DNA of 64,000 bases from Nitrospirota bacterium. GTDB taxonomy: Bacteria; Nitrospirota; UBA9217. The DNA lies in assembly GCA_963754875.1 (NCBI GenBank), contig CAVWHO010000007.1:140965-204964 (forward strand). The letters run 5' to 3'. The position numbers and the translations under genes were made by a program. Shown one piece after another: positions 17 through 9,241 of the stretch. The first letter of the stretch is position 1. The number at the start of each line of letters is the position of its first letter. The notes beneath the pieces are model-generated. The model saw only the letters and a list, made by a program, of their open reading frames with translations, ran no database searches and had not been told where the DNA came from.

Positions 17-982
17 TTATTCTTTCGACGCTCTTGGATTCACCGCCACGTACACCACGCTCTGGAACAGGCTGCCCATGCGCACGAGGACCGCGGCCAG
101 GATCGCGATGCCCATGATCACCGGGTAGTCCCGGTCCTGCGCTGCCTGCCAGGCCATCCTTCCCATGCCGGGCCAGTTGAACACCTGCTCCACGATCACG
201 GCGCCGCCGAGGATGAAAGGAATTTTGGCCGCGATCATCTCGGTCACGGGGATGAGCAGGCCTTCCTTAAAGGCATGCTTCCAGACCGACGCGCCTTTGG
301 CCTTCGCCGTACGGATGTAGTCCTCGGCCATCACTCTTTCCATTTCCTGGCGCAGGAAGCGGATCACCTCGCTGATCGTTCCGTTCCCCACGCCAAGCAC
401 GAAGATCGGCAGCAGCATATAGAGCCAGCGGTATTTCTGTCCCCCGTTCGAAAACCCGAAAGCGAGCGGAAACAAGCCAAGCTTGTGCGTGAAAAAGTAG
501 ATGACGATGTAGCCCAGCCAGAACACCGGCAAGGCCGAGACCACGTAGGAGAACATGGTGAGGGGCCACGAAAGCCTATTGATGCCGCGAACTGCAGAGT
601 AGAGTGCTAGAGGCACGGCGATAAGGAGCGTTATGATGAGAGAGCCGATAGTAAGCAGGAACGTATTGAGCCCAACGCGCAGCACTTCCGGGAGTACCGG
701 CAGGCCGGTGCGGATCGAAGTGCCGAAGTTCCCGGTGAGCATGCCCATAAGCCAGGATAGGTACTGGGCATACCATCCCTTCGAAACACCAAGCGCCTCG
801 CGCACGCCTGCCCGGGCTTCTGCCGTCGGCGTCTGCCCTTCGAGCAGAACGCTGAACGGGTCGCCAGGGGACAAATAAAGAATGATGAACACCACGAAGC
901 TCACGCCGAGGAGCAGCAGCGCTGTGATCACCAGCTCCCTGGACAGGGCCAGGGCTATGGGCCGGAAGGCAGAAAGCTTCAT
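17..982 (-). CDS. Peptide/nickel ABC transporter permease (DppB/OppB family)
   Basis: N-terminal PGDP motif, multiple TM segments, EAA loop 'EDYIRTAKAKG', 'VEQVFNWPGMG', 'RDYPVI'. Confidence 0.93.
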   Translation of the reverse strand: MKLSAFRPIALALSRELVITALLLLGVSFVVFIILYLSPGDPFSVLLEGQTPTAEARAGVREALGVSKGWYAQYLSWLMGMLTGNFGTSIRTGLPVLPEVLRVGLNTFLLTIGSLIITLLIAVPLALYSAVRGINRLSWPLTMFSYVVSALPVFWLGYIVIYFFTHKLGLFPLAFGFSNGGQKYRWLYMLLPIFVLGVGNGTISEVIRFLRQEMERVMAEDYIRTAKAKGASVWKHAFKEGLLIPVTEMIAAKIPFILGGAVIVEQVFNWPGMGRMAWQAAQDRDYPVIMGIAILAAVLVRMGSLFQSVVYVAVNPRASKE

Positions 983-1083: not shown

Positions 1084-2701
1084 CTATTTCTGGTCTTTCT
1101 CCTCCATGAACCAATCATCGGCGTAGGAAAAGAACTTGTAGGGGTGAATGGCCACGCGCCTGATCTTTTTCTGGTATGCAGTATAGTTCGTAAGCGTCCA
1201 GAGGAAGGTATAGGGGTTCTCATCGGCCAGTATCGCGTGGAGCTTCCGGTTGATGGTCCTGCGCTTTTCGTGGTCCAGCGTGAGCTTGCTCTCGTTGATC
1301 AGGCCGTCCACTTCCGGGTTGGAATAGCCGCCGAAGTTGTTCTTCCACGCACCGATCTCGCCGGAGTGAAAAAGAGACGAGATGTCGGCCGAATCGTCGA
1401 ACACCCAGGACGCGAACATGATGTCGAAGTCGTGCTCCAGGAACACGTCCTCCTTCCAGGCCTGCCATTCCTTGAACTCCACGTTGATGTCCACGCCGAT
1501 GTTCTTGAGATAGTTCTTGAACGCGAGCACCACGCGCTTCACGGCCTCGCTCTCCTTCTCGATCGGCACCTTGAGCGACAGCGCCAGTCGTCTTGCCGTT
1601 CTTCTGCATGATGCCATCGGCGCCGCGGCTGAAACCCGCTTCCTGGAGCAGCGCCTTCGCCTTTTCTGGATCAAAGGGAAGAGGCTGCACGTCGAGGTTG
1701 TAGGCCCAGCTGCCGGGCGCGAAGGGGCCGGAGATGATGGTCCCCTGGCCGTTAAAGAACGAATCGAGCATCTCCTGCCGGTTCACGGCATAGGTAAAGG
1801 CCTTCCGCACGCGCTTGTCGGCCAGGAGCGGGTTCCGTACGTTGTAGCCGAAGAACGAGTAGGACAGCGCGTTGTAGGGCTGAAGGATGAATCGCTTGTC
1901 CCCCTGGATCTCGGGGATGTCGCGCGGGTTCACGAGCACGATCATGTCGATGGCGTTGAACATGAGCGCCTGGGTCATGATGTTCTGGTCGGCGAACGGC
2001 TTGGCAATGAACGTGTCGATGTGCGGACGGCCTTTGAAGTAGTTGTCGTTCGCCGAAAGGACGATCTCCCGCTCGGCCGTCACGTTTTTTAGCATATACG
2101 GACCGGTGCCGATGGGGTTCTGAACAAAGGGATCGTCACGGGTCAGATAATTTGGATTGGTCGGCCCGTGCTTCGGGATGATCTTGAAGCTGAACTTGGC
2201 CAGCGCGTTCAGGATCGGCCGCTTGAGCGTGAACTTGACGGTATAGTCATCGACCTTTTCCACGCTGTCGATGAACTCATAGCGCACTTTGAGCGGGGTG
2301 ATGGTCTTAGGATGCATCATGATCTTGTAGGTGAAAACCACGTCATCGGCCGTAAACGGCTTGGGTTCCTCTCCCTCTTTCGGATGCCAGGTCACGTCCT
2401 TCCGGAGATAAAAGGTGTAAATGCGACCGTCCGGGGAACGGTCCCACTTCTCCGCCAGCTCGGGAACGATCTCCTGCTTTTCATTGATCCCGACGAGGCC
2501 GTTGAAGATGAGCTCGGTCAAGCGCAGCGAAATCATCTCGTTGCTCGTGATCGGGTCGAGAGTCGCCGGCCGGCCGTATTCGCCGTAGCTCAGCGTGCCG
2601 CCGTCCGGCCGATTGTCCTTCTTGTGCTCTGCCTGGCCAACAGCAGCCGCTGCCATCACCGCAATGACGCTCAGAAGTAGAACCACCAGCATGCGTTTCA
2701 T
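1084..2701 (-). CDS. ABC transporter substrate-binding protein, family 5 (DppA/OppA-like); +1 frameshift near 1590
   Basis: Signal peptide, 'TLDP', 'FTADDVVFT', 'PIGTGPY'. The C-terminal part (LALSLKVP...YSNPEVD) continues in the frame of ORF 1084..1674. Confidence 0.88.
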
Positions 2702-2773: not shown

Positions 2774-4261
2774 TCAATTGATCTTCACGTCCCCGGCGCT
2801 CTTGTGTTCCACGGCATAAATGCCCTGCAGCGCTTCCTGGATCTGGCGCACCTCAGGGAATTGCTTGCTCATCTCGAAGTAGATCTCAAGGGCCTCGGAA
2901 AAATTTTTGGTTCGGTAATAGGCTTCCGCGAGATTCACGAGCATGGCCGGATCGTTCGCTTCGATTTTGTTCTTGTTGCCCTTGTCGCGTCCTGCCTCCA
3001 GGTACGAGGCCGCCTTGGCGTAATCAAGCTTCCGGAGATAATACCTGCCGACGGCGATCTTGAGGATAGAATATTTTCTGCCTTCTCCAGCCTCGGCCGC
3101 GGCTGTGGATTTCTTCACCGTCTGCGCGCATTCGGCCCTCAGCCTGCTGCAGGCGAACAGGACCTCCGCGAGAAGATCGGGGTCCTCGGGCTGTTTTCGC
3201 AGGAGTTCGTCCCAGACGCCCACGGCGTCGGTAACGCGTCTTTGCTGGTAAAGGTTGGCGCCCTGCCAGACGCGGATGCGGTCTTTATACTGCTGGGGCA
3301 TCTGCGATGAGGAGACGAAGGCGGCCGTCACTTTTGCAGACTGATCGAGAGACCCGAAGAGCGCATAGGACTGACCAAGATAAAACTCCGCGGCGTCCTT
3401 CACCTTCGGATCAGCCGCTGCTTTTTCCAGGTAGGCGATGCTCGCCTGACCGTAGATTGTCGCCATATCGCCGAGCAGGGTGAGATCGTAAAAGTTGATG
3501 ATCTTAGATTTGCCGAGCGTCTCCCGGTACGAATAGGCCTTGAGTTCCGAACGTTTGAGGAGATCCAGTCCTTTCTCGGTCTGCCCTGCCTTGGCATAGA
3601 CAGCGAGGATACTTTTGACCATGCGCATCGAGAGCGGCTTGCCGGACCGTTTCGCTGCTGCAAGGCTCTCGGCAGCGAGGGCCGCGGGATTTTTATCCGC
3701 AAGACCCGCTTTGCTGTATGCAGCGGCAAGTTCGGCCTTCACCTCGGGATCGGAAGAGTCAATCGCTGACCAGAGCTCCTTCGCTTTCTCGGCTTCATGA
3801 TTCTGATAGTAACACAGGCCGAGACATACCTTGGCCTCGGACCGGTACCGTGGTTCCAGATTCCCGCTCGCTGAAAATTTTTCCAGGTGGATCGCCGCAG
3901 CGGCCGGCTTCCCGGTCTCCATGAGGGCCTCGCCGAGATAGAAGTCGACGAAATGGCTTCTGGCCGGGCCCCGCGCAGCGGCCAGCTTTTTCAAGCAATC
4001 CTGTGATGCAGACGCAGCGGCCTGGAACAACTCGCGGTGCAGCAGGGCATTCTTGAAGTAGACCATGCCGAGCGTCAGGTTGGCTGTCCCCTGTCTCGGT
4101 TGATCGATCGAGGCAGCGTCGGAACGCAGCACTGCAGCAGCATCCTCGTAATGCTGCTTTTCATAAAGCTTCATCGCCTTCGTCACCGCATCATCTGCAG
4201 CAGAGACCTGCACAGCGGTTAGGAGGACAAGAGATGAAAGAAATAATGCGGTACGTCTCAT
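2774..4261 (-). CDS. Secreted tetratricopeptide-repeat protein
   Basis: Signal peptide MRRTALF... after GGAG; repeated TPR-like helices (FYLGEALM, VCLGLCYY, NLAEAYY). Confidence 0.8.
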   Translation of the reverse strand: MRRTALFLSSLVLLTAVQVSAADDAVTKAMKLYEKQHYEDAAAVLRSDAASIDQPRQGTANLTLGMVYFKNALLHRELFQAAASASQDCLKKLAAARGPARSHFVDFYLGEALMETGKPAAAAIHLEKFSASGNLEPRYRSEAKVCLGLCYYQNHEAEKAKELWSAIDSSDPEVKAELAAAYSKAGLADKNPAALAAESLAAAKRSGKPLSMRMVKSILAVYAKAGQTEKGLDLLKRSELKAYSYRETLGKSKIINFYDLTLLGDMATIYGQASIAYLEKAAADPKVKDAAEFYLGQSYALFGSLDQSAKVTAAFVSSSQMPQQYKDRIRVWQGANLYQQRRVTDAVGVWDELLRKQPEDPDLLAEVLFACSRLRAECAQTVKKSTAAAEAGEGRKYSILKIAVGRYYLRKLDYAKAASYLEAGRDKGNKNKIEANDPAMLVNLAEAYYRTKNFSEALEIYFEMSKQFPEVRQIQEALQGIYAVEHKSAGDVKIN

Positions 4262-4358
4262 GCGCGCTCCTGGAATACACTTCAAGGTTCGCCGTGTATC
4301 ATTCGGGACTGCATACACTTCGAACCGGGGTAAAGATCTGTCTTCTTCCTTCCGCTTT

Positions 4359-5618
4359 TCAATCCCTCAGCTTTGCCAGAAAAATCTGGTCCCACTGGTT
4401 GATCTGGGCGCGGAACGCAATGGTCCCGTCCCGTGCGCAGGAAACGTCATGGTTCATCTTCGTATCCGTTTTGAGAGGCACACTCATTTTCAGTTTGACG
4501 TCCGCAACGTAGAGCGGATTGTATTCCTGTCGGTCGTTCTTCACATAGATGATCCGGTTGCTGTCCGGCATCCAGGCAGGCCCGGTTTCCACATCGGCAA
4601 CAACGTCGATTGCCACGGCTTTTGAAGCGAGTCCCTCACCCTCCGTGGGGTCCGAACCGTCCGCGGCAATGACGAAGATAGACCACATCCTCGGGTCCCC
4701 GGCCGCATTGTAGTTGGAATAAAAGGCGATCTTTTTTCCGTCCGGCGACCATACCGGCCGAAGATCGTCATAGGTCCAGGTCGTGAGCTTTCTTTTGGAT
4801 TCCATCGGTTTGGCCACGTCGTTGATAATGACGATGTCGTGGTTTTCATTGCTGCCGTGCATCATCACGAGCTTTTTGCCGTCCGGTGACCATTGGGGAT
4901 AGAGATAGGCCTTGCCTCCCCGTGTCAGCCGCGTTAACACCCGCGTTGCGAGATTAAGAAGATAGACATCACCGTTTCCTGTACGCCCTGACACGAAGAC
5001 TATGCGGTCCTCGACCGGCGACCACTGGGCCTGGCCGTCTTTTTCTCTGTGCCGAGTAAGCCGCACCGGGGCACTGCCACCGAGGTCGAGAAGGTAAATA
5101 TCGTAGTTGCCCTCTCCGCCGTTACTCATGAAAACGAACCTTAGTTCGTCGGGCGACCAGGTGATGCCCGCGTTGTAGCTGGTTTCATCGTACACGCCGG
5201 GAAAAAAGAACCTCATCTCCGAAAGGCTCCGGGACAACAGGTGGAAAACCGTCTGGACCGGCGTACCGTCGGATAACGTGACGCGGATCTCCTTTTTATC
5301 TCCGACGCTCCGTTCAAAGGCAATGAACGTTCCCTGAGGGGACCAGATAGGGTTCGAATCGTTCCGTCCCGATTCGATTGCGACGAGCGGCTTTACGAAC
5401 AGCGGCTCAGCAGCTTCGGGCTTTTCCCCCTCCGCCTGACTTCCGGTCTCCGTCGTGGCGGAAGACAGGTCGGCAGGAACGACCGACGACGGTGCGGAAC
5501 TGCCGCTTCCCGTGTCCGTCGGTGCGGGCAGAACGTCACCGGCAATCGCCGCAGGGACGATGGCCGCTGCAGAGAGCGCAACGGCCCCTAGGGCGCAATA
5601 AAGCTTCCAACCCTTCAC
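4359..5618 (-). CDS. TolB-like PD40 beta-propeller protein, secreted
   Basis: Repeated P.WSPDG..I.F motifs; signal peptide and low-complexity linker. Confidence 0.88.
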   Translation of the reverse strand: MKGWKLYCALGAVALSAAAIVPAAIAGDVLPAPTDTGSGSSAPSSVVPADLSSATTETGSQAEGEKPEAAEPLFVKPLVAIESGRNDSNPIWSPQGTFIAFERSVGDKKEIRVTLSDGTPVQTVFHLLSRSLSEMRFFFPGVYDETSYNAGITWSPDELRFVFMSNGGEGNYDIYLLDLGGSAPVRLTRHREKDGQAQWSPVEDRIVFVSGRTGNGDVYLLNLATRVLTRLTRGGKAYLYPQWSPDGKKLVMMHGSNENHDIVIINDVAKPMESKRKLTTWTYDDLRPVWSPDGKKIAFYSNYNAAGDPRMWSIFVIAADGSDPTEGEGLASKAVAIDVVADVETGPAWMPDSNRIIYVKNDRQEYNPLYVADVKLKMSVPLKTDTKMNHDVSCARDGTIAFRAQINQWDQIFLAKLRD

Positions 5619-5632
5619 CAGGCTAACTCCGT

Positions 5633-8206
5633 TTAAAGGTCCTTGATCTGGTCCCAGTACTTCCGTGCCGAATCCCGTGCCTGATCAAAGGTGCTGTTGC
5701 CTTCGAGGCTCTTGGGGAAGAAGTCGAAGTACTCGCGCCATGCAACATTTGCATTGTTCAGGATGTTGTTTTTCCGCGTGATCTGGTAGAGCTTGTTGTA
5801 TGAAAGGGCCATGTAGTAGTACGTATCGTGCACGGCCTCGTCATAGCGGTCATTCGGGAAGAACCTCATGTTTTGTTTTGCGACCTGGAGGTTCTGGATC
5901 GCTTTGGCGAAGTTCTGCGCCGCAGCCTCGCGGTCAGTCTGGATGAGCGAATTGCCCTTCTCGTAATAGGCATGGCCGAGGTTCATGAACGCCACGGAGA
6001 ATTGCTTATACACGAGCTGCTGGTTCTCGGGCAGCGAGAGCACGTTCTCAAACTCGCGGATGGCCCCGTCGTAATCACCTGTTTCGTCGAGGTAGATCCG
6101 GGCCAGCCGATGGTGCGCCGCGGAATAATCGGGATGGTCTTTCTCGGTGCTCTTGTACGCCATGACTGCACCGTTGATATCGCCTCTCTGTTCCGCCTGT
6201 TCGCCGATCTTGAGGAAGTCCTTGTACAGAACGATCTTTGCAGCGCCCGTGTAGTTCTCCTCTTTCTTGGCAAACTCGACCACCTCTTCCCAATCCCGGT
6301 AGTCCCCGCCGAGCGAGACTTTGACCGTATGGAAGCCGAGGTTCACCGGTTTTCCGTCGAGGATGGGCGTCCTGCCGATCTTGTCGCCGTCCACGTACAC
6401 GTCAGCGCCAGTAGGCCGGGAGTTGATCGTGAACACGGCGTTGTTGACCAAAAGCGTGAATTCTTTGGTGTCCTTGTTCTTCTCGATCGTGACCTTCTCG
6501 GTCACGGGCTGGTAGCCGTGCCGGTACAGCATGAGCGTGAAGTTCTTGTTGAGCCTGACCGGGACCTCGGCCGTGCCGTCGGGAGCGGTCGAGCCGAGCC
6601 ACTCGTCGTTCACGTAGATGTTCACCGCGTTGAGCGGAGAAACGTTGGGAGGCAGGCCTCCCTTGGCCAGGAGGACGAAGTAGTTGCGCACGCTCTCTTC
6701 CTCGCCTTCCCGATAGATGCGCCGGACCACCCGGTCGCCGAAGGCGATCTTCTCGTCTTTTTTCAGGTCCTCCACCTCGGCCCATGACCCGTTCTCTTCG
6801 GATTTCTTGACCCGAAGCCTGCCGGTCTCGCTGTATCCCGATATCTTTCCCGTCTCATCCATGCGCGGCGTCATGAGCGTAAAATCCGTTCCGCTGGAGA
6901 TCTTATAGCCGCTCTTCCCGAGGTTGATCCGGTAACGTTCACCGTCAACGCCGATTACGGCGCCTTCGAAGGGAAATCGCTCGATCACGGCTCTCGCGAT
7001 GTCCTTGGCCGCGCCGTTGATGTTGCCTGCGCTCTTTGCCCGCGTGATCTGGGAGAGGATCAGCGTGCCACCGGAGGTATAGAACTTGGTTTCGATCAGG
7101 AAGCCCTTCTCATCCTTTGAAACGCTGCCCAGGATGATCATGTCAACAGTCTTCCTGAGCGGCGTCTCCCGCCATCCCTTGGCGGTGATCTTATCGATGT
7201 TTAATTTATCGTGTTTCATCTCTGACTGGAGGGTTTCAGACGGGACCTCGCGGAAGCAGGAATATTTATAGAGCTGCGCCGCCACGGCACTTTCGGTCTG
7301 CGTAAGGATGTCGTTGAGATCGGTATTGGCAGTGTTGCTCACGAACCGGTAAATGCCGGTCCTGATCGCTTTTGGTGATGTAGGATAGAAGTACCGATTG
7401 ACGTTGACCTCGTCTTTCAGAACGATGGTGGTCTTCCAAGACTCAGGGATATACCCCGGGGCGGACAGCGTGAGCGGCACCCTCTTGCCCGGCTCACCGT
7501 CGTAGGACCAGGTCAACGCGCCCTTCGCATCGGTCTTGCCCACGTCCTTATTGTTGATGGTTACGCTCAATCCCGGGATGCCGCTCGTCTGGCCGTACTC
7601 TTCCGTACGGGCGTTGATCGTCACGGTCACGCGCTTGGTGAGCTTGGCTTCAATCGTCTGGCCCGGCTCCACGGCCCCGGTCTTGTGCCAGGCTGCATAT
7701 CCAGATTTTTTCACCGCCAGGTCGATGCCGTTCTCGGGCAGGTCCTTGTACTCGTAGACGAACCGGCCGGACCCGTCGGTCTTGCCGACCTCTTTGCCCG
7801 TTGCCCTGACAGCGGCGTCCGGGACCGGAGAACCCTTCTCGGTCACGACAAGTGTTACGAACCGCGTCGCGGGAAGATCGGCCGTCAATGAGTACGTATC
7901 CATGGCCCCTGACTTGGAGAGTTTCATGACGAACGAGCCCTTCCAGGGCTTGATATGATAGCCCGGGATTTCCTTTGAAACAACGACCTCGACGTCCGCC
8001 CCGGGTTTCCTCCTGATGACCCTGGAGAAAACGCCGTTTTCGTCGGTAACGCCTTGTTCTTCATTGTCCACGATCACCTTCGCGTGGGCCGCTGGCTGGC
8101 CGTTCATGCCGGCCTTCACTTTGAGTTCGAGCTTTTCTCCTGCACAGGCAAAGAGCAGGGACGACACCATTACCAGTATCGCTGTATGTACTGCACGCTT
8201 AATCAT
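5633..8206 (-). CDS. Large lipoprotein: repeated beta-sandwich (carboxypeptidase-regulatory-like) domains, PEGA domain, C-terminal TPRs
   Basis: Lipobox LFAC; G.TD..G repeats; PEGA 'INSRPTGADVYVDG..IGRTP'; TPR helices. Confidence 0.8.
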   Translation of the reverse strand: MIKRAVHTAILVMVSSLLFACAGEKLELKVKAGMNGQPAAHAKVIVDNEEQGVTDENGVFSRVIRRKPGADVEVVVSKEIPGYHIKPWKGSFVMKLSKSGAMDTYSLTADLPATRFVTLVVTEKGSPVPDAAVRATGKEVGKTDGSGRFVYEYKDLPENGIDLAVKKSGYAAWHKTGAVEPGQTIEAKLTKRVTVTINARTEEYGQTSGIPGLSVTINNKDVGKTDAKGALTWSYDGEPGKRVPLTLSAPGYIPESWKTTIVLKDEVNVNRYFYPTSPKAIRTGIYRFVSNTANTDLNDILTQTESAVAAQLYKYSCFREVPSETLQSEMKHDKLNIDKITAKGWRETPLRKTVDMIILGSVSKDEKGFLIETKFYTSGGTLILSQITRAKSAGNINGAAKDIARAVIERFPFEGAVIGVDGERYRINLGKSGYKISSGTDFTLMTPRMDETGKISGYSETGRLRVKKSEENGSWAEVEDLKKDEKIAFGDRVVRRIYREGEEESVRNYFVLLAKGGLPPNVSPLNAVNIYVNDEWLGSTAPDGTAEVPVRLNKNFTLMLYRHGYQPVTEKVTIEKNKDTKEFTLLVNNAVFTINSRPTGADVYVDGDKIGRTPILDGKPVNLGFHTVKVSLGGDYRDWEEVVEFAKKEENYTGAAKIVLYKDFLKIGEQAEQRGDINGAVMAYKSTEKDHPDYSAAHHRLARIYLDETGDYDGAIREFENVLSLPENQQLVYKQFSVAFMNLGHAYYEKGNSLIQTDREAAAQNFAKAIQNLQVAKQNMRFFPNDRYDEAVHDTYYYMALSYNKLYQITRKNNILNNANVAWREYFDFFPKSLEGNSTFDQARDSARKYWDQIKDL

Positions 8207-8369: not shown

Positions 8370-8819
8370 TTACATCGTCGGCGGCTGGATGTTCACCTCG
8401 CCGGGATTCACGATCTTGTCCTCGTCCGACTTTGATCCCTCGATGCTCTTTAGCTTGCCTTCGGGGATCTTCCTGAGCTTGAACTCCACTTTCTTGCTGC
8501 CGAACTGGGTGATCTCGACAGACTGCGTCTCGGTCAGGTAGCCGATCCTGCTCGCTTCCACCTTGTACATCCCCGGGACGATGTAGTCCTTCACTGATTC
8601 AAACTTGCCCGCTGCGTCAACGTTGACGGCTTGCGACGCTTTTTCCAGCGTCGTGGTCGTATTGATCATATTCACCACGGTTCCTTGCGGGCTTTCGTTG
8701 GTGATTGGGACCGGCTGCATCTTCGCGTCCAGAAGCTGGACCGTACCGTAGATCTTGGGAGCGCATGATGCCAGGGAGAGCGCCAGTACGGCGAGCAGAA
8801 AAGTGTGTCTTGACTTCAT
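8370..8819 (-). CDS. Small lipoprotein, carboxypeptidase-regulatory-like beta-sandwich
   Basis: SD AGGAGG before ATG at 8819; lipobox LASC; 'PGMYKVEASRIGY'. Confidence 0.75.
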   Translation of the reverse strand: MKSRHTFLLAVLALSLASCAPKIYGTVQLLDAKMQPVPITNESPQGTVVNMINTTTTLEKASQAVNVDAAGKFESVKDYIVPGMYKVEASRIGYLTETQSVEITQFGSKKVEFKLRKIPEGKLKSIEGSKSDEDKIVNPGEVNIQPPTM

Positions 8820-8889
8820 ATCCGATTCCTCCTGTACCGTGAATGTGATGCGGTTAAACAATGATTCTCCGCACCGAAGGTGATGGAAC

Positions 8890-9058
8890 AAAAAAAAGCC
8901 GCCAAATGAACAAAGACAACGTTCTTTGGCGGCTCGACTCGCGTATAAAACAGCATGCACCTTCCGTCGGATTGTTGCGTCGAGCGGAAATATTCCTGTT
9001 TTACGTAGCTTCGTAGCTCTGCGCCCCCAGGTTTCCCGGGGTTTGCTCTGAGCAAAGG
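8890..9058 (-). ncRNA. c-di-GMP-I (GEMM-I) family riboswitch, A20 variant, with intrinsic terminator expression platform
   Basis: Minus strand reads CTTTG-CTCAG-A-GCAAACC-CCGG-GAAA-CCTG-GGGGCGCAGAGC...TCGAGCCG-C-CAAAG. The terminator AGCCGCCAAA...TTTGGCGGCT-T7 overlaps the aptamer 3' strand. Confidence 0.88.
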
Positions 9059-9241
9059 ATATGTTAACCTAGAACTCGATGCAACGACAGTAGAAATTTA
9101 CCATGCCGTCTTCATCTTGTCAAGCGACAGTCTCTTTGAAAAAACGCTTCATAAAAAGCCTGACTTAATCAAAGGTTATCTGGATGACAGCCCGTACGAT
9201 TACACGGTGACATTGTTCCCTGTAATCGTAATCACACAAAT

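Follow-up and report, generated by a model that had tools for sequence, protein, structure and literature searches.

An A20-variant GEMM-I riboswitch conserved in the Nitrospirota class UBA9217 is a candidate 3',3'-cGAMP ON switch of a predicted envelope and ABC transporter operon

Geobacter, Myxococcus and Bdellovibrio have been reported to signal through cGAMP made by Hypr enzymes; riboswitches for cGAMP are known mainly from Geobacter. These RNAs (GEMM-Ib) are variants of the c-di-GMP-I (GEMM-I) riboswitch in which, according to the available parts of PMC6140456 and PMC6456294, an adenine at position 20 (Vc2 numbering) plays a role in cGAMP recognition. The adenine permits cGAMP binding and does not exclude c-di-GMP (available part of PMC6140456, as are the following values). 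The G20A mutant of Vc2 bound c-di-GMP and cGAMP with 53 nM and 120 nM, respectively, in isothermal titration calorimetry (ITC). For Cbe 1-2 of Clostridium beijerinckii, a natural A20 switch, the corresponding values were 30 nM and 463 nM, a preference for c-di-GMP of about 15-fold that is ascribed to a protonated adenine. Gs1761 was strongly selective in in-line probing and about threefold selective in ITC in one buffer. The sections available of PMC9140294, PMC5888326, PMC6274999, PMC5473149 and 10.64898/2026.01.30.702909 contained no rule for the selectivity of the scaffold. In the Geobacter pilM switch, which senses cGAMP and acts as an ON switch, a terminator takes the ligand-pairing cytosine (PMC9262584, available part).

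The locus described here lies in a stretch of 64,000 nucleotides from a Nitrospirota genome of the class UBA9217 (the window; positions refer to it throughout). An original prediction, made from the DNA letters, had proposed a GEMM-I aptamer with A20 and a possible response to cGAMP in a lineage where this signal is little studied. The host indeed belongs to an uncultured class whose nearest named records are Nitrospirota. According to the accessible text of PMC11033732, this class is enriched in aquifers and has Wood-Ljungdahl and dsrAB genes. The element is a real GEMM-I riboswitch of the A20 variant. A cmscan search with permissive filters matched RF01051 (Rfam c-di-GMP-I) at 8925-9057(-) over the complete model (1-87) with 46.7 bits and an E-value of 8.5e-8, above the gathering cut-off of 35 bits; the significant covariance-model hit that the prediction depended on was thereby obtained, and all strings it had quoted for P1, P2 and P3 were found on the minus strand. 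The default fast-filter Rfam scan of the whole window gave 0 matches, and this miss of the aptamer is probably due to the insert in P3. RF01051 was the best match of its clan in the window. The cut-off of RF03167 (c-di-GMP-I-GGC; 59 bits) was not reached, nor was it in the 3 of 20 related loci for which RF03167 was the best match (42-45 bits). Matches to MIR7510, snoR28 and Thr_leader were dismissed as chance, being far under their cut-offs; those to MIR7510 fall on the terminator hairpin.

The base preceding GCAAA in the RF01051 alignment is an A instead of the canonical G20. Contigs from all four public runs (4/4) cover this position without any other letter, so that the predicted A stands, with the proviso that one run may be the source of the window; one public-run contig was identical across 8859-9101. 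A47, C92, C44 and G83 are canonical, and the base of P2 is Vc2-like, with G21-C46 and C22-G45 pairs and a GAAA loop. Both the tetraloop and a receptor-like internal loop are present; in the receptor region the letters differ from those of the model to which it aligns. Folding of the 181-nt region gave a z-score of -3.57, and 0 of 200 shuffles reached as low an energy. The coordinates are collected in Table 1.

Table 1. Elements of the riboswitch and genes of the predicted operon, in window coordinates.
Feature	Position	Strand	Basis
Sigma-70-type promoter-like site (TTGACA, 17 nt, TAAATT; TG before -10)	9095..9123	-	10/12 consensus matches
c-di-GMP-I (GEMM-I) aptamer, A20 variant	8924..9057	-	RF01051, 46.7 bits; covariation
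P1	5' strand CTTTG 9057-9053; 3' strand CAAAG 8928-8924	-	sequence
P2	9046-9021	-	RF01051 alignment, covariation
P3	9017-8932	-	RF01051 alignment, covariation
A20 (Vc2 position 20), ligand-contact base, G in canonical c-di-GMP-I switches	9047	-	RF01051 alignment
GAAA loop	9035-9032	-	sequence
C44/G45/C46/A47	9023-9020	-	RF01051 alignment
G83	8938	-	RF01051 alignment
C92	8929	-	RF01051 alignment
Closing strands of P3 extension	TAAAACAG 9003-8996; CTGTTTTA 8953-8946	-	sequence
Variable P3-tip insert, 42 nt	8954..8995	-	length and sequence unconserved among orthologs
Intrinsic terminator; 5' arm is aptamer 3' strand including C92 and P1 3' strand; 8-U tail	8890..8935	-	folding, orthologs
Ribosome binding site AGGAGG	8828..8833	-	sequence
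First gene: 149-aa predicted lipoprotein, weak CarboxypepD_reg-like domain	8370..8819	-	domain search; lipobox-like LASC by eye
857-aa predicted lipoprotein: CarboxypepD_reg, PEGA and TPR domains	5633..8206	-	domain search
TolB-like PD40 beta-propeller protein, under TolB equivalog cut-off	4359..5618	-	domain search
TPR-repeat protein; true start probably ~20 codons further in	2774..4318	-	domain search
Family-5 (Opp/Dpp-type) solute-binding protein, split by one-base insertion near 1592	1084..2701	-	domain search
Opp/Dpp-type ABC permease	17..982	-	domain search

Relatives of the first gene were found in 41 of the 64 class genomes, and in 38 of these 41 the exact A20 pattern lies directly upstream of the gene; the three genomes lacking a match to the pattern are G028, G022 and G012, the last with a contig-end fragment. 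The ortholog alignment comprised 29 rows from the 30 best loci of the first gene; the genomes are kin, and the counts do not represent independent events. Aptamer and terminator were both present in 29 of these 30 loci, and a match to the c-di-GMP-I clan was obtained in 19 of 20 loci scanned. A20, A47, C92, C44, G83 and all of P1 were invariant in the aligned orthologs (29/29). The aptamer fold was paired in 92.6% of the alignment cells, compared to 34-45% in slid controls, and two-sided changes occurred in 9 of 31 aptamer pairs, a covariation that backs P2 and P3; P1 never varies and is uninformative in this respect. RNAalifold did not recover P1 and P3 and proposed an alternative helix at the 5' side. 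The probability of this helix ranged from 0.0 to 1.0 across the orthologs and no covariation accompanied it; it is at most a possible fold of the ligand-free RNA. The unusually long P3 extension that had been pointed out at the outset is real, with 42 nt between the closing stems, but it is not conserved: the tip measured 5-55 nt in the 27 of 29 orthologs where its length could be determined, and the tip sequences are unrelated. On account of this variability the insert was rejected as a functional novelty; it looks neutral and drifts freely.

A covariance model made from the ortholog alignment matched strongly at 33 of 59 operon loci, with A20 in 33 of 33. The strong matches were confined to loci of the Nitrospirota class and one locus in a genome titled Geobacteraceae, and the other deltaproteobacterial, betaproteobacterial and Rokubacteria operon loci among the 59 gave no match to the aptamer model; the operon is thus spread more widely than the switch. 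At one locus (L024) the 3' half alone was kept near the gene. In L048 (L048:9400-9900), which covers the same place, the intact terminator is preceded at a distance of about 400 nt by a decayed 5' half with G20. This relative has apparently lost the switch and kept the terminator.

The 3' end of the aptamer runs into a terminator with a stem at 8935-8896(-) and eight T at 8897-8890. The fold of this piece had a z-score of -4.36 (0 of 200 shuffles as low). A simple terminator scan did not list it, the long bulged loop being outside the rule of the scan. The segment 8935-8924(-) is common to the aptamer 3' strand and the terminator 5' arm, an arrangement conserved in the 29 orthologs, which agrees with the initial proposal that the two folds exclude each other. 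In the orthologs the terminator was paired in 96.3% of the cells, without two-sided covariation, and its pairing probability at equilibrium was 0.82-1.0 in all 29. The terminator fold was favoured over the constrained aptamer fold by 9-29 kcal/mol in an energy model that includes neither the ligand nor tertiary contacts, and P1 was scarcely populated (0.00-0.23) in transcripts ending before the terminator. Because the terminator wins at equilibrium in 29 of 29 orthologs, switching must be kinetic. The layout is well supported as that of a transcriptional ON switch, as had been proposed: a U-tailed terminator shares the 3' strand of the aptamer and is predicted to be favoured when ligand is absent. 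In the mechanism that we envisage, the terminator would form without ligand and the downstream operon would be off. Ligand bound during transcription would clamp P1 and C92 before the 3' arm of the terminator emerges, and the clamped aptamer would allow read-through into a predicted nine-gene operon for envelope proteins and a peptide-type ABC transporter. The same layout is found in the pilM switch (PMC9262584, available part). The promoter-like site upstream of the aptamer is weak by itself (shuffles average 0.5 sites), and a TTGACA is again found ahead of the aptamer in the orthologs inspected. Between the aminotransferase gene and this promoter an inverted repeat, GATTACGATTACA ... TGTAATCGTA, was observed at 9183-9240; it might bind a regulator or form a hairpin.

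The ribosome binding site and start codon of the first gene span 8833-8817(-). Downstream of the six genes in Table 1, past the start of the window (G000:C7:137733-141230), are the genes for another permease and two ABC ATPases, bringing the Opp/Dpp-type ABC transporter part to five genes. The nine genes are probably co-transcribed, and the gene order was retained in the distant loci inspected. From its domains the operon would encode an envelope-associated system for the uptake of peptides or other solutes. A single-sequence AlphaFold model of the 857-aa protein had a pLDDT of 38 and was set aside, and atlas searches with the 857-aa and 149-aa proteins returned solely unnamed clusters of the same family.

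GEMM-I switches were detected in 63 of the 64 class genomes, with up to 27 per genome, and 25 of the 29 best-scoring GEMM-I loci of the class that were read have G20. The search for further A20 copies that had been suggested was successful: the host genome contains seven copies above the cut-off, three with A20 and four with G20. Since G20 copies are also kept in the class, A20 is held alongside G20, as two signals would need. One of the A20 copies (L132:3904-5941; G000:C13:57864-57940) has another scaffold and a terminator and precedes the gene for a 559-aa exported c-type cytochrome, a lipoprotein with Pro-Thr and Cys-rich repeats. We take this copy to resemble the Gs1761/pgcA switch, and the cytochrome to be PgcA-like by architecture. 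The third A20 copy (L133:4595-5122; G000:C16:341041-341121) lies upstream of a DUF309 gene, with a clostripain-family lipoprotein a few genes on. In many class genomes a sister subtype, likewise with A20 but with P3 shorter, lies upstream of surface lipoproteins with Ig-like/fibronectin-like repeats (domains recognized by eye; L109, L127, L128, L210-L233); in one genome (G002) two copies are separated by about 290 nt. Just after an HD-GYP gene with RxxH, at G000:C13:16895-16971, lies a further element that resembles GEMM-I weakly (23.2 bits) and has a terminator.

The host assembly is 90% complete and several conserved genes are broken in it, by one-base insertions at window position 1592, L235:1555 and L135:2387 and by an in-frame stop at G000:C18:6496-6498. 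The insertions affect the solute-binding protein and both candidate synthase genes described below, and the stop affects one of the RxxQ genes. These breaks are likely uncorrected assembly errors, because the genes of close relatives are intact. The genome was searched for enzymes of cGAMP metabolism, as the prediction had recommended. Among its 32 GGDEF-like ORFs (some of them fragments or degenerate), two have Ser at the Hypr site; these are the two insertion-bearing synthase candidates. Most GGDEF domains of the host are canonical Asp types, and c-di-GMP is probably made in the host too. A GacA-type enzyme with Ser and GGDE[FY] was absent from the 32 ORFs of the 90%-complete genome. The search for a CD-NTase drew a blank, with no SMODS match in the same genome (one family searched).

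The first candidate (G000:C21:95501-96905; L131, L235) has a HAMP input, Ser348 and GGDDF, has membrane segments by eye and lacks EAL or HD-GYP domains. It is present in 55 of 64 class genomes, and the Ser was found in all 30 loci read (27 GGDDF, 3 GGDDY). A Ser-bearing homolog in the genome titled Geobacteraceae is 35% identical over 345 aa. GSU1937, an active cGAMP synthase, has the same combination of HAMP, Ser and GGDDF; its fusion made c-di-GMP too in E. coli (PMC8835794, available part). The second candidate (G000:C16:84193-85113; L130, L135; intact relative L136) is a GAF-GGDEF protein whose best PDB match is GacA (6D9M). Its Ser (GacA 348) and Tyr (the non-Arg cross-dimer residue) align with 6D9M, and both residues are present in all 48 class loci that could be parsed out of 50. 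In place of GGDE[F/Y] the protein has GGEEF, as do the same 48 loci and all 119 homologs parsed out of 120 listed. Of the 63 other genomes of the class, 61 contain it; in the rest of the phylum it was found in 1 of 237, at 39% identity. In a tree built from 57 GGDEF domains, without partial domains and without the relatives' GGDDF orthologs, it grouped with Asp/GGEEF GAF paralogs of its own class and not with the GacA-type protein (90/94, weak support). In the available part of PMC6456294, which presents the Goldilocks model, Ser/GGEEF is inactive in GacA mutants and absent from natural Ser enzymes. The GAF-GGEEF family is therefore either a conserved non-catalytic receptor or an exception to this rule.

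Candidates for the removal of cGAMP are two HD-GYP genes with RxxQ (2 of 10 parsed motifs in the host genome). Their RSYQ aligns with RPYK of PmGH (4MCW/4MDZ) and conforms to Rxx(Q/N); RxxQ is given as the mark of PmxA-type cGAMP phosphodiesterases in the accessible portion of 10.1101/600031. The pattern, a narrow one, was found in 7 of 64 class genomes. With less confidence than for the switch itself, we suggest that cGAMP might be made by the HAMP-GGDDF enzyme of GSU1937 type, perhaps also by the GAF-GGEEF protein with its Hypr Ser and Tyr, and might be removed by the RxxQ HD-GYP enzymes.

The genome titled Geobacteraceae (G301) contains two copies of the same aptamer subtype, one before the operon and one before a gene for a likely TonB-dependent receptor (L079:6644-6821; L310). 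Among 301 genomes of the class to which G301 belongs, one has the exact subtype pattern, which is thus not a common Geobacter type; the copies possibly arose by transfer from Nitrospirota, or reflect mis-binning. The genome also encodes a Tyr/Ser/GGDEY enzyme and a Ser HAMP-GGDEF homolog, in keeping with a switch that operates where cGAMP is made.

Overall, we consider it reasonably probable that the A20 switch responds mainly to 3',3'-cGAMP and acts as a transcriptional ON switch, with some cross-binding of c-di-GMP to be expected. The original prediction had cautioned that A20 alone does not prove selectivity, rightly so, as both Vc2 G20A and Cbe 1-2 bind c-di-GMP more tightly than cGAMP. 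The aptamer has the A20 of GEMM-Ib and lacks the Gs1761-like scaffold, having G21-C46 and GAAA. A Gs1761-like scaffold has a C21-G46 pair and a GYRA-type loop. With the Vc2-like P2 base and GAAA loop the switch might be bispecific, binding both dinucleotides about equally and reading the sum of the two pools. The same combination of scaffold and A20 is bispecific in Vc2 G20A, some natural A20 switches are described as bispecific (PMC6140456, available part), and canonical and Ser-type cyclases are both encoded in the genome. The strict retention of A20 beside many G20 copies would, however, fit a preference better than indifference, and we hold equal recognition to be possible, if rather unlikely. 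A switch that responds to c-di-GMP in the cell, with a protonated A20 tuning its affinity and the Ser enzymes being inactive receptors or makers of c-di-GMP, seems improbable. It could draw on the c-di-GMP preference of Cbe 1-2 (PMC6140456), the inactivity of Ser/GGEEF in GacA mutants (PMC6456294) and the c-di-GMP made by the GSU1937 fusion (PMC8835794), each as given in the parts available, and on the many canonical cyclases of the genome, but it would leave unexplained the Ser cyclases, the RxxQ HD-GYPs and the Geobacter-type A20 switch before the cytochrome. These two pairs of genes, two Ser-signature GGDEF and two RxxQ HD-GYP, are genomic signs of cGAMP metabolism, and together with the Geobacter-like A20 copy they make the genomic context lean to cGAMP. 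Arguments against the cGAMP reading are the Vc2-like scaffold, the GGEEF of the Ser/Tyr protein, the lack of a GacA-type enzyme among the 32 ORFs, the broken synthase and RxxQ genes of the assembly, the small share of class genomes with the RxxQ pattern, the predominance of canonical GGDEF domains, the terminator without two-sided covariation and the occurrence of the operon in other phyla without the switch.

That the aptamer is a relic, or unable to compete, and the element a constitutive terminator we regard as very improbable. The lower computed stability of the aptamer fold, the sparse P1 even before the terminator and the relative (L024/L048) that lost the intact aptamer and kept the terminator would be in line with it. 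On the other hand, none of the 29 orthologs departs from the pocket and tertiary-contact bases while the insert drifts, P2 and P3 covary, neither the ligand nor tertiary contacts enter the energy model, and pilM is a working switch of the same kinetic layout (PMC9262584, available part).

The RNA class and the A20 change are already known. In a literature search of titles and abstract starts, neither A20 switches nor Hypr enzymes of Nitrospirota turned up; such variants may already be included in the tables of Kellenberger 2015, Nelson 2015 and Ren 2015. On the preferred reading, a cGAMP-responsive ON switch, the cGAMP pathway would reach another phylum and new target genes, with a conserved reader and candidate writers and erasers in one class of Nitrospirota. 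The aptamer also offers a natural test of selectivity determinants besides A20, as it is near the bispecific Vc2 G20A and yet kept by selection. More tentatively, and with doubts that outweigh our confidence, we propose a class-wide cGAMP network in which a cGAMP-selective Vc2-like A20 switch is served by a GAF Ser/Tyr/GGEEF cyclase that arose apart from GacA and makes cGAMP. If true, this cyclase would break the published rule that Ser/GGEEF is inactive and not natural; the Ser/Tyr/GGEEF family makes the Goldilocks active-site rule directly testable.

Compared with the described systems, the aptamer is closest in build to Vc2 and RF01051, sharing the full-length model match, the GAAA loop, G21-C46, C22-G45, A47, C92 and C44-G83. 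It differs from Vc2 by its natural A20, a G at position 48, the 42-nt P3 insert and a changed loop-receptor sequence. With the Geobacter GEMM-Ib switches (Gs1761/pgcA, Gm0970, pilM) it has in common A20, the control of exported or envelope proteins and the presence of Ser-type cyclases in the genome, whereas the P2 base and loop scaffold, the phylum and the genes are others. Its ON logic, in which C92 and the P1 3' strand are taken up by a terminator, is shared with pilM (PMC9262584, available part). Cbe 1-2, likened by A20 alone, is also a natural A20 switch outside Geobacter; it preferred c-di-GMP by ITC, whereas the present host carries signatures of cGAMP enzymes. On the enzyme side, Ser is shared with GacA (6D9M) and GSU1937 in two genes, one with the cross-dimer Tyr and the other with HAMP, Ser and GGDDF; the latter is likened to GSU1937 by its published description (PMC8835794, available part). 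The Tyr/Ser enzyme has a GAF input and GGEEF, whereas GacA has a Rec input and GGDEF.
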